A stretch of 64,000 nt of DNA from Octopus vulgaris (lineage: Eukaryota), in NCBI GenBank assembly GCA_951406725.2, contig OX597816.1, positions 145,576,001 through 145,640,000 on the forward strand, written 5' to 3'. How positions within the stretch are numbered: position 1 is the stretch's first letter; the number at the start of each line of letters is the position of its first letter. Below, in pieces: positions 19,286 through 49,745 of this stretch. The notes beneath the pieces are model-generated. The model searched no databases and was not told where the DNA came from. It saw only the letters and a program-made list of their open reading frames with translations. Position numbers and translations under genes: made by a program.

Positions 19286-20517
19286 TAAGTAATACTAAGC
19301 AATTAAGGGTTTAGCAACGATGCCTTACCGACACCGAATTTAGAAATAGCAGTCAAAGAGATTATACTATTTCTTCTACTAAAGGAGATCAGTAAAGACA
19401 CAGCATTTGAAAGGCAAACACAAAAGGTAAGAGAATGAATTAACGGCAATCTATCATACAGTTTAAGTCACCTACGGACGTACGTTTCGAGATCAAGTCT
19501 TAGGAAAGCATAAAATTAGATAATTCTACCTTACCCAACTTTCTCATCAGCGCAGGATACAAACAATCATGAATGATTGAATATTGAATTTTGAGATACT
19601 AGAAGGCACCAACTCAACTCAGTATCAGAGCGAGCTAGAAGCCACAGCTAGTATTACCAAATTCAAAGTATGAATGAAAGCTTGTGTACCAGTCCTTCCA
19701 CCGCGTGTAGCCAAGACAAAGTGCTGTGTCATTTACTGGATGAATATGGTTATGAGTAACAATGAGGTGAAATTAATTAATTTGAATAATTATCAATAGT
19801 CTTCGGCTAAAAGCCTCATTCGAGGAAAATTTAAGTAATACTAAGCAATTAAGGGTTTGAACGAATTGCCTTACCGCACACCGAATTTAGAAATAGCAGT
19901 CAAAGATTATAGCTATTCTTCACTAAGGAGATCACAGTAAAGACACAGCATTTGAAGGCAAACACAAACAGGTAAGAAGAATGAATTAACGGCAATCTAT
20001 CATATAGTCACCTACGACGTTTCGAGATCAAGTCTTAGAAAGCATAAGAATTAGATAATTCTACCTACCAGACTTCTTCTCTCATCACGCAGGATATCAT
20101 GAATGATTGAATATTGTTTGAGATACTAGAAGCACCAACTACTCAGTATAGCTGAACCACAGCTAGTATCACCAAATTCAAAGTATAATGAATCTTGTGT
20201 CACCAGTCCTTCCACGCAATCATTCATGATTGTTTGTATCCTGCGCTGATGAGAAGAAGTCTGGTAAAGTAGAATATCTATTCTATCTTTCTAGACTGAT
20301 CTCAACTACGTCCTAGGTGACTAAAACTGTGATGATGCGTTATCATTCTCTACTTTGTGTTGCCTTATGCTGTGTCTGTATCTCCTTATGAGAATAGCTA
20401 TAATCTCTTGACTCTATTCTAATTCGGTGTATCTGCTAAATATTTATATACTATTTCCTCTATGCCGAATCGTGTATTGATAATTATTCAAATTATTTCA
20501 CCTTCATTTTACTCATA
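19286..20517 (-). mobile_element. Hammerhead-bearing tandem plus inverted repeat element (Penelope pLTR-like / retrozyme-like)
   Basis: Unit of ~546 bp (19286-19831), partial second unit (19832-20216) and an inverted partial unit (20217-20517), flanked by (TA)n on both sides. Confidence 0.8.
19471..19556 (-). ncRNA. Type I hammerhead ribozyme motif
   Basis: Minus strand: CCUGCG-CUGAUGA-[long stem II]-GAAA-C-GUAC-G-UC^CGUAGG; stem I is 6 bp with one GU; loop III is palindromic. Confidence 0.8.
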
Positions 20518-20645
20518 TATATATATATATATATATATATATATATATATATATATATAGAGAGAGAGAGAGAGAGAGATATATATCTATCTATATCTAT
20601 CTATCTATATATATATATCATGTATATATATGTGTACGGACTGAG

Positions 20646-20706
20646 ATATTTGCCTTGCCTTAATGTTTGTTGTCCTCTGTAACAAACATTAAGGCAAGGT
20701 AAATAT
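20646..20706. repeat. 26-bp inverted repeat (1 mismatch, 9-nt spacer)
   Basis: atatttgccttgccttaatgtttgtt / aacaaacattaaggcaaggtaaatat. Confidence 0.9.
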
Positions 20707-21046
20707 ATCAAGTTATACACAATATTATTATTGAAAAATATTCAAAGTCTTACTCCGGGTCCTGATATATTCCCGAGTATGGGATATTCCGTAATCACAG
20801 ACAGATAAGGAATAAACAGAGAAAATGAGAATGGTATATATTCATGAGATGACCTAACGTATCTAATAGCTTCGATCATCTACGAACTAAACTCCCATAT
20901 TTTGTACACACATATGTATATATACATACACACACACACATATGTATACATGTATATATACGCACATATATATATATATACACATACATATATATATATA
21001 TTATATATATATATATATATATATATATATATATGTATATATTCTA

Positions 21047-21200
21047 TTAAGAGTAGCAAAAGGAATTTGAAGATTTTTCGGCAATTTTTCGCTTGCTAAG
21101 ACTAGCCTCAGATTGCCCAACAATACGACCTCTTTGAAAATCGGACAGTTCTGCTGAATTTGTTGTGTGTTGCATGGTTACAATTCGCAAATGTTTAATA
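21047..21200 (-). mobile_element. Tc1-like transposase N-terminal fragment
   Basis: ELSDFQRGRIVG..EASLSKRKIAEK resembles the Tc1 paired-like HTH start (ELSxFERGRIVG..GxSxRxIA). Confidence 0.65.
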
Positions 21201-21214
21201 TAATGGCACCTGGA

Positions 21215-46847: not shown

Positions 46848-47472
46848 TTGAGATTCAAGTGAATTCTAATGAATTCACATGAATATGGTCCTTAACTAGG
46901 ATGCACCGGAAATCTATATGGTGTTAACCATACGACAAGTGGGGTGATTACACATAGGCAAAAAGCAACAAGAATAGATTAAAATATCGGTACAACTGTT
47001 CTGTACGAGGACATCTTTAATAAGCTACAAAAAATGCAGTAAATATAGATGGCTCGTAATCGTCAGCCGAAAAAACGTCAGAGATTCCCAAACATCAAAA
47101 GGGGTAGATACAAATGAGGGTGTGAGTTTAACTGCATTGAAGAAAGTTCGTTCCTGGAGATCCGATGAAAGGTCTTGAACTTACAGAATATGTGCATGTC
47201 CATATATAGTTCATAGTGAATTGTTAATCAAGTTACGTGAAGAAATTTTGGATACAGTCGTGCGAAATTTCTGAGAATCCGAGTAAGAAGCAAAGTAACA
47301 AACTCACACCCTCATTTGTATCTACCCCTTTTGATGTTTGGGAATCTCTGATGTTTTTTCGGCTGACGAGTACGAGCCATCTATATTTACTGCATTTTTT
47401 GTAGCTTATTAAAGATGTCCTCGTACGAAACAATTGTACCGATATTTTAATCCATTCTTGTTGCTTTTTTCC
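46848..47472. mobile_element. Fold-back, hammerhead-bearing element (Penelope-like, non-autonomous) in (TA)n
   Basis: 170-bp arms 46960-47129 / 47300-47469 with 6 mismatches and a 170-bp spacer; TA tracts on both sides. Confidence 0.8.
47359..47442 (+). ncRNA. Type I hammerhead ribozyme motif (canonical core)
   Basis: UCGG-CUGACGA-GUACGAG...CUCGUAC-GAAA-C-AAUU-G-UA^CCGA; predicted cleavage after 47438. Confidence 0.88.
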
Positions 47473-48698
47473 TATATATATATATATATATATATACATA
47501 TATTATATATATAAATATATACATACATACATCTATAAATATATATATATATATATATATATATATATGTGTGTGTGTGTGTGTGCGTGTATATGTGTGT
47601 GTATGTGTGCGTGTGTGTAAATAACGCACATCCACAGCACACAGCAGATACACACACAGATATACATACAAACACACGCACAAATACAACACATACCACC
47701 ACACACACCTGCATACATACACAAATACGTACATACACGAACACAATAAGTTCATTCCATAGTTAAAACGCATACACAACGAAAAAACAAACATATACAC
47801 ACGCTATAAAATTCTAACAATCACAACAAACACAGACATACACAGATACACACACCACACAATAACTCACACACATGCACACTCATACAGATATATACAT
47901 ATGCAGGCACACACACACACCACCACCACCACCCGGGCAATTATAACATTACAAACATACACACACATACACGCCGGACCAACACAACACATAAAAACAT
48001 ACACAAGCATATATACACGTACATAGAACCGTGCGCATACACTCACACCCTCATACCATCTTGAACTAGTCGAAAAACCACCGAACCATGACAGACAAGC
48101 CCAGAAACGAAAAAGTCCTTTTGATTCCACAAACTATTCGAAGACAGTTCATGTGACTGCTCTCAACCAACCTCACATACTATTTCTAAAAATAGTAACC
48201 ATCCTTGCAAAACACATATACAAGCCTGGAGAGGAAGAAAAAAGGTTGGTCATTCCTCGTTCAGTTAGTTTGACAAAGCGTCCTAACTAGTTTACGCACC
48301 ACTTCAGTTCGCCATAGCTTGTAGTTTTCCTTTTCTCAAAACAAACCCTGTTACAATTATTTCCAGAACATTATTTCTTCATTTATTGCCTTATTTGCCA
48401 GGAGATATTTAGTAGTTATTTATTAAGACTAATGCACGAGCATGTACACTTCCTTTAGTTTACCATTAGGGGCAATATTGTATTATTCACATGTTTATAA
48501 TTCAAATGTTAAGGTAGCTGTTGTTAAAAAAAAGAAACTTTTCTTTAATGCTTAACTCTGATAAAATAAATATCAATGTTATCGCGTAATACATTTGAGG
48601 ACTGCTCCTGGGTTAGAATTTGTAACCCAGGTTGATTTTCACGTTGTTATATTATATTCACTCACTCGCATGAATACCCAAAAATTGCTTTAAATAAT

Positions 48699-48899
48699 GG
48701 TTTCAAATTTTTGTACAAGACCGACAATTTCAGGAAAGGGTCGTAATTCATTACATTAAGCCTAGTATTCAACTGGTACACATTTTATCGATGAAATGCA
48801 TAGACAACCTTGGCGGGATTTGAACCCAGAACATAAAGGCAAACGAAATGACGCTAACCATTTTAGCAGGTGTGCTAACAATTCTGCTAACTCGCTGCC
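48699..48899 (-). mobile_element. SINE family A
   Basis: Reverse complement begins ggcagcgagttagcagaattgttagcacacc; B box gggttcaaatccc. Confidence 0.8.
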
Positions 48900-49379
48900 T
48901 TAAAACTACATTATGTAAAATACAATTCTATGAAATATGCATGGTTGTACATGTGTGTGTGTGCGTGTGCATGTATGTATGTATATATATGTGTGTATAT
49001 ATATATATATATATATATGTGTGTGTGTGTGTGTGTGTGTGTGTGTGTGTGTAGTAGAAGGTTGAAATGGAACACACAAGTTGATATATATGGAAAAATG
49101 TCAAGTATAAAATGCTAAAATAATTTTATAAAGAACATTTCATTACTGGTTTCAGTCATTTAGAATTTTTCAACTGTAAGTATTGAAAACAATTAAATTT
49201 TGGAAACATTAAAAGAAAATACGCAGTATTCAAATACAACGGACATTTTACTTGTTTCCGTCTGTCTCTGTCTCTCTTGTTTACTCTTGGCTCTTTTTCA
49301 GCAGGGGAAATGTTTTGAAGGATGGTGTCGAAGGCTTAATTGTTGAGAGGTTTGGTAGGGCTTTTGGTTGTAAATCCTT

Positions 49380-49745
49380 CTTTAATTTCGGATGTCTGAG
49401 TTCGTGGATGTTGTAGGCCACGTTGAAAGCATATTAGTGAAGGTGGGTAGTTCCTGGTGATGAATGTATCCTTTAGTTCATGTAGTCGAGTCTCTGGTGT
49501 TTGCATTAGAAACTATAGTACATATACTTTTTGCTAGGCTGAAGGTGATATTCATTCTGGTGTGTCTGGGGTGGCATGAGTTGAACGGTAGTAATTGCTT
49601 CGAGTCCGTGGGCTTATAATTTATATCTGTTTCTATTACGTTGTTAGATTTTTTAATGAGGATGACGAGGAAGGAAAATTGTTGATGGCAATATTCCATC
49701 GTGAACTGAATGTTTACGTCACATCCATTTATATGTGCGTGGAAT
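49380..49745 (-). mobile_element. Penelope-like element RT thumb/linker fragment
   Basis: NIQFTME..FSFLVILI..ETDINYKPTDSKQLLPFNSCHPRHTRMNITFSLAKSICTIVS..TRD..HELKDTFITRNYP matches the PLE pattern IQFTxE..PFLD..YxKPT..SxHP.. Confidence 0.88.

Follow-up and report, generated by a model that had tools for sequence, protein, structure and literature searches.

We analysed a stretch of 64,000 nucleotides of Octopus vulgaris DNA (contig OX597816.1, positions 145,576,001 to 145,640,000 of the forward strand; hereafter the window), in which a first-pass annotation had described five fold-back inserts, three of them with hammerhead or hammerhead-like folds, at TA microsatellites. These fold-backs are likely to be 5'-truncated 3' ends (pseudo-long terminal repeats, pLTRs) of several unrelated families of Penelope-like elements (PLEs), one of which has a hammerhead with a swapped G3-C8 core; only slow or dimeric cleavage is predicted for it. 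Self-BLAST of the window after masking of microsatellites detects local inverted repeats (less than 1 kb apart) at five sites only, E1 to E5, which are the five sites named before. A further TA-flanked insert, E6, had been missed. The inserts and a reverse transcriptase (RT) relic are listed below, with the strand where one is assigned.

E1, 19286-20517, minus strand: PLE-type complex insert with tandem copies at 19288-19701 and 19834-20215 and an inverted copy at 20217-20517; TA tracts on both sides; poor base quality.
E2, 20631-20905: 42-bp hairpin (20631-20727), then a repeat that recurs at 12194-12314; no hammerhead.
E3, 40323-40591: near-perfect fold-back of about 93 bp in a TA tract; one-sided tail of about 85 nt (40323-40410); no hammerhead in the retained part.
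E4, 43842-44118: fold-back 43842-43908/43990-44055 with a tail of about 63 nt (44056-44118); its family is very abundant, has TA at the 3' end and varies in its inversion points.
E5, 46848-47472: 176-bp arms at 96%, a 170-nt centre and a tail of about 106 nt (46848-46953); TA tracts on both sides.
E6, 43187-43478, minus strand: TA-flanked insert without a fold-back; member of a repeat family; carries a hammerhead.
RT relic, 49276-49750, minus strand: frameshifted RT C-terminus/thumb of a Neptune-type PLE, with half a hammerhead motif at about 49150.

Layout of the inserts and their TA tracts

The two arms are identical in 36 of 42 columns in E2 (20631-20672 and 20686-20727), 92 of 94 in E3 (about 40398-40490 and 40506-40599), 62 of 67 in E4 and 169 of 176 in E5 (46954-47129 and 47300-47475). 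In E3, E4 and E5, the overhang lies on one side only, between one arm and the TA tract, and the inverted copy of E1 reads through the tandem junction and stops about 83 nt beyond it, which gives the tail of this insert. E1, E3, E4 and E5 share one layout, with head-to-head arms, 3' ends at (TA)n and a tail on one side. The common layout previously assigned to all five fold-backs therefore holds for these four and fails for E2, which is a short hairpin and whose supposed overhang is a repeat about 70% like 12194-12314, a copy with neither a hairpin nor a TA flank. E2 does not clearly belong to the PLE group.

The inserts had been described as lacking primary-sequence similarity and as lying in or next to TA-rich tracts, and both statements are borne out. 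E1 to E6 are mutually unrelated (the top pairwise z is 2.7). A tract of at least four TA units lies within 5 bp of 11 of their 12 ends, compared with a background of 2.5% of non-tract bases within 10 bp, although this count is partly circular, since the tracts helped to define the insert ends. A weak relic at 46230-46300, between TG and TA/TG tracts, resembles the end of E3 (64 of 91 columns).

Hammerhead motifs and the swapped core of the E4 family

The window was searched with a strict descriptor of type I hammerheads that allows any Watson-Crick 3-8 pair and an optional extra nucleotide and asks for a palindromic helix III. It finds three motifs (47363 on the plus strand, 43316 and 40861 on the minus strand), compared with a mean of 0.01 in 100 block shuffles. 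A first, looser descriptor found three motifs, compared with 0.27 in 30 shuffles. The individual motifs are as follows.

E1 hammerhead, 19471-19556, minus strand: type I, C3-G8 core at 19550, domain II of about 55 nt, palindromic helix III, GUC site.
Hammerhead relic, 40824-40866 (core 40861), minus strand: type I, U3-A8, 5-bp helices I and II, palindromic helix III, GUA site; old.
E6 hammerhead, 43259-43324 (43316), minus strand: type I, C3-G8 core, 8-bp helix I.
E4 motif, 43925-43975, minus strand: hammerhead-shaped, located in the fold-back loop; the majority of the family reads G3-U-G-A-A-C8-A9 with one extra nucleotide; predicted cut between 43932 and 43931.
E5 hammerhead, 47359-47442 (47363), plus strand: type I, C3-G8, domain II of 57 nt closed by a 7-bp helix II, palindromic helix III, GUA site.

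If the tail is taken to define the sense strand, the hammerheads are on that strand, at a distance of 35-190 nt from the 3' end. Three inserts had been credited with hammerhead or hammerhead-like folds. This stands for E5, for E1 as a composite of three noisy copies, none of which is found singly by the strict descriptor, and for E4 as the family majority; the window copy of E4 is decayed, with G3 facing G8, the 3-8 pair lost and helix I broken. One of two proposed relic motifs, at 40824, is recovered by the strict descriptor, whereas at about 49140-49150 only the second half (GAAAC..UA) was found. Homology between these two relics is unsupported (z is 3.1, and one shuffle reached that score), and the U3-A8 motif therefore cannot be tied to the Neptune relic.

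A second copy of the E5 hammerhead, without GAAA, lies in the opposite arm. Folding predictions give helix II of E5 a pair probability of 0.98 when the ribozyme is folded alone and of about 1e-48 within the whole insert, which weakens, for E5, the earlier idea that such inserts supply self-cleavage sites. Since the arms themselves contain the ribozyme and duplex formation is predicted to trap it, copies of the E5 type would be double-stranded RNA (dsRNA) rather than cut sites. A read-through transcript of a fold-back would reach the antisense arm first. If read through, the fold-backs would yield long dsRNA (predicted perfect helices of up to 86 bp), as is true of any inverted repeat.

To place the decayed E4 copy in its family, contigs of four public runs (X2, X3, X8 and X15, the last guessed to be RNA) were compared with 43190-44130 at 80% likeness; this comparison covers E4 and E6 only. 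At 43963, a C>G change that gives C8 accounts for 378196 of 422412 of the depth in X2, 395340 of 430240 in X3, 35700 of 37356 in X8 and 6471 of 6765 in X15 (89.5%, 91.9%, 95.6% and 95.7%, respectively), a share that reflects amplification of one or a few master copies and not independent events. Since each run lists exactly one C>G place, position 3 (43968) remains G in more than 90%. Helix I regains its 7 bp with the letters that prevail at 43928 (97-99%) and 43929 (58-84%), and the majority form also has a 5-bp helix II and a palindromic helix III. It keeps U4, G5, A6 and A9, G12, A13 and A14, and the A15.1-U16.1 pair, with U as H17; the Watson-Crick 3-8 pair is present and the canonical C3-G8 identity is absent. 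The descriptor accepts this form (core GUGAACA) and none of 20000 dinucleotide shuffles, an optimistic value since G3-C8 and the extra nucleotide were admitted only after the motif was known. In X2, the depths at the motif add up to about 4 x 10^5, compared with 28-64 for long single contigs, which suggests a family of thousands to 10^4 copies, although depth is not directly readable as copy number.

The minimal type I hammerheads known from PLEs (PMC4209133; File S2 of PMC8557442) are marked by an extra nucleotide after A9, G10.1-C11.1 and a palindromic helix III, features that they share with the motifs described here. They also occur as opposite-strand pairs 100-700 bp apart and include a U3-A8 variant (PMC4209133), as at 40861; natural U3-A8 hammerheads are reported in PMC3088659 as well. 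The U10.1/U11.1 of the E6 family majority, which also has a better inner helix II, is found in 14 of 26 Hydra-clade rows of File S2, and 10 of the 26 have U at the cut site, as in the E4 family. The differences are that domains II of E1 and E5 measure 55-57 nt, compared with a spacer of 7-17 nt in the published core search, and that all 34 rows of File S2 start with C3, whereas the E4 family has G3-C8.

The swapped pair itself is known from engineered C3G/G8C hammerheads, which are partly active in vitro (PMC11167929, PMC8495972, PMC3884650); in one case the swap partly restores a PLE hammerhead (PMC11167929). In E4, by contrast, the swap occurs naturally, in the majority of a family that is abundant in the genome. 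A full-text literature search found no natural G3-C8 hammerhead, its coverage ending short of subscription papers and of PMC5785218, which describes dimeric PLE variants and may list G3-C8. Scans with E4-family patterns gave no matches in metagenome contigs, viral contigs or prokaryote genomes. What is new here is an abundant family in which the G3-C8 core prevails throughout; should its RNA cut, this would be an uncommon variant among natural ribozymes.

We tentatively consider it possible that the E4 family is an octopod short PLE-dependent retroelement of about 10^4 copies with a working swapped G3-C8 hammerhead. It would represent a compensatory double change fixed in an animal mobile element and missed by searches based on CUGANGA, and 3-8 pairs of the C-G, U-A and G-C kinds would then all lie within 7 kb. 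The swap may have been fixed in a master copy since the 3-8 pair had to be kept. A more doubtful alternative is that the G3-C8 motif no longer works as a ribozyme and persists either because RT binds the folded RNA or as a relic fixed with the master copy. In vitro, PLE insertion is not lowered by hammerhead mutations, RNA ends that would mark the cut were not found (PMC11167929), hammerheads of the minimal PLE type are poor cutters (PMC4209133), engineered G3-C8 restores the rate only in part, and the E4 stretch has no hammerhead score in Rfam. On the other hand, the remaining core letters are intact and the two partners of the 3-8 pair changed jointly; loss of function would not predict this. 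Whether selection acts on cutting by PLE hammerheads is an open question, given their poor cutting alone and their dispensability for insertion in vitro (PMC4209133, PMC11167929); as judged from its letters, the E4 core may point to selection on the catalytic fold. Ribozyme counts built on the CUGANGA box, on short domains II or on Rfam models would miss abundant families.

Probable Penelope origin and proposed formation of the fold-backs

A PLE origin, already favoured by the first-pass annotation, is supported by the layout, the TA targeting, the type I hammerheads near the 3' end, the Neptune-type RT relic and the variable inversion points. The Penelope RT relic reported earlier is confirmed: 49490-49750 on the minus strand is 60% identical over 88 aa to P0001, with a frameshifted continuation to 49276. 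Pfam does not recognise the relic, and no GIY-YIG or endonuclease match follows it in the window.

The inserts share with insertions of endonuclease-containing PLEs (Penelope/Poseidon, Neptune, Hydra and Naiad) the inverted 5'-truncated copy, partial tandems, a tail at one end, the (TA)n target and a hammerhead near the 3' end (PMC8557442, PMC3846280). Hydra-1_Obim and three octopus Naiads are listed with a (TA)n preference in the supplement of PMC8557442. Layout and TA targeting are thus already known, octopus PLEs included, and the inserts, apart from E2, are likely to be ordinary PLE debris of several families. The proposal of a new system does not hold in this respect, since the pattern is the ordinary signature of 5'-truncated PLE insertions.

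Animal non-LTR (long terminal repeat) retrozymes are likewise non-coding, carry type I hammerheads and have been proposed to depend on PLEs (PMC7229834; bioRxiv 10.64898/2026.07.22.740005). They differ in being defined by whole units, arrayed in tandem and bearing canonical hammerheads, and by circular RNAs, whereas single stubs and head-to-head fold-backs are found here; the window holds no tandem array of at least two whole hammerhead units and only a partial tandem at E1.

The public-run contigs show how the E4 fold-backs vary. Among the 15 joints listed (of 61), 8 link the left part of E4 with its right arm or tail and do so at positions that differ from the window copy (43871/44007, 43912/44067, 43958/43997, 43960/44013, 43961/44008, 43985/44034, 43986/44028 and 43988/44033), with depths of 55-117 as measured against 28-64 for the longest single contigs. 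Four further fold-back pairs of the same kind appear in a separate table of the comparison, and the remaining listed joints comprise two head-to-tail joints, one internal deletion and four opposite-strand joints that are ambiguous. Loose ends before 43835, the 3' end of E4, are TA-rich in X2, X3 and X15. Because the joints differ in position across independent runs at high depth, the fold-backs of the E4 family are genomic, recurrent and variable. Six of the eight listed fold-back joints have their break at 43958-43961, within the hammerhead, or at 43985-43988, a short way upstream.

These features could arise in a few steps suggested by the PLE literature. The GIY-YIG endonuclease of a PLE would nick both strands of AT-rich or (TA)n DNA, and RT would prime on both nicks from either of two internal RNA sites, giving two outward copies, one of them tailed. 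In published work, a PLE protein cuts both strands at AT-rich DNA and RT starts at two internal RNA sites whose spacing equals the tail (PMC11167929); the tail would be one-sided because of these two start sites. Early stops and a joining of the two 5' ends, a step that we propose here, would leave outward-pointing stubs. In the E4 family, the stopping and joining points differ from locus to locus, which shows that each insertion forms its fold-back afresh.

Several results weigh against this interpretation, in addition to the optimistic shuffle value and the amplification of E4 from few masters mentioned above. The tails of E1, E3, E4 and E5 (63-106 nt) are longer than published PLE tails (30-40 bp). 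The inserts have no attached open reading frame (ORF): inspection of ORFs and tblastn with three Neptune proteins over the window found no PLE-like ORF in any insert, and the only tblastn match, at 49276-49750, is joined to none of them. Six short motifs have no exact match in the PLE consensus file of Craig et al., and the 3' ends of Naiad_Ovul/Obim show no resemblance to the inserts by eye. Neither E2 nor E3 has a hammerhead core with a downstream GAAA helix, and the majority version of E6 is rejected by the strict descriptor although its minimum free energy fold is a three-way junction. Rfam finds no hammerhead at E<=10 in 43190-44130, 46850-47470 or 40735-41040, nor any among the 150 of 216 matches listed for the whole window, where only miRNA-like hits on microsatellites appear. 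Finally, the window's own E4 junction is bridged by no listed contig of the four public runs.

Some families, E4 foremost, might instead be non-autonomous, as the first-pass annotation proposed: dedicated short elements, of about 150 bp plus tail, that have a 5' end of their own and rely on a PLE enzyme acting in trans for their copying. We regard this as rather unlikely, though for the insertion step it is compatible with the PLE origin. A fixed 5' end is hinted at in the E4 family alone: behind 43988, loose ends have only 5-6 letters in common and then diverge (agreement 0.43-0.51 in X2, X3 and X15), compared with 0.62-0.79 behind 43918, and three listed joints break at 43985-43988. The lack of PLE-like ORFs fits such elements, and non-autonomous PLE derivatives have been described (PMC8557442; preprint 10.64898/2026.07.22.740005). 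However, most PLE copies are short 3' stubs anyway (PMC4209133), 5' ends piled up just upstream of the hammerhead could mark the pLTR start of an autonomous element, the loose-end evidence amounts to 24 of 1077 rows, and the window contains no tandem array of E4 units.

It is improbable that the fold-backs, E1 above all, are long-read chimeras or assembly errors. The two tandem copies of E1 differ by 31 gap events and 4 substitutions, and 28 of the 30 gaps of the inverted copy are deletions; a control pair of short interspersed elements (SINEs) shows 6 gaps and 30 substitutions. As gap events far outnumber substitutions, the letters of E1 carry uncorrected raw long-read errors. The junction comparison with public-run contigs, moreover, covers the E4/E6 stretch only. 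Nevertheless, genuine inverted duplications also cause missed bases in nanopore reads (PMC7229812), and the inverted arm of E1 halts at a TA tract rather than mirroring the left flank, with two ends that differ by the tail; the layout of E1 is therefore probably real, while its letters are unreliable. The arms of E3 to E5 differ mainly by substitutions, and contigs of all four independent public runs contain E4-family fold-backs at many points, so that the chimera objection raised in the first-pass annotation does not apply to this family. Least probable by far are miniature inverted-repeat transposable elements or DNA elements of another type that target TA and have fixed terminal inverted repeats. 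Such elements would suit high-copy, short, non-coding inverted repeats with TA flanks and could still account for E2, but the arms are unequal with a tail on one side, the joints of the E4 family vary between loci contrary to the fixed ends once considered, head-to-tail joints occur, and E6 has a hammerhead and TA ends without an inverted arm.

Neighbouring repeats and further observations

Several E6-family contigs switch sequence right behind the predicted cut site (43262-43268) and several lose their match at 43426-43433; these switch points mark either subfamilies or the family boundary. A 256-nt contig covers 43380-43632 with 0 substitutions and 3 gaps, and an abundant repeat lies between E6 and E4 at 43510-43797, with a summed depth of up to about 96000 in X2/X3. 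The A>G/T>C counts are 7/9 in X15 and 9/14 in X2, and the contigs are uninformative on RNA ends, strand and editing. E5 shares up to 0.44 of its words with public runs, a figure that refers to word share only, and none of the runs listed for it is recorded as RNA.

A near-complete long interspersed element (LINE) with APE and RT occupies 14912-19136 on the plus strand, with one frameshift region, and its 3' end enters the TA tract that hosts E1. A second 3' end of the same family, at 12870-13020, also adjoins TA-rich DNA. Among named relatives of the LINE ORF, the closest comes from Argonauta hians (50%), which, like the resemblance of the repeats to those of octopus, would fit an octopod. A repeat family that we take to be SINE-like is found at 22708-23102, 44139-44524 and 42389-42547, the two full copies being 89% alike. 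A 42-bp tandem repeat at 45735-45932 lies inside a composite element, parts of which recur at 21495-22242 and 46115-46177.

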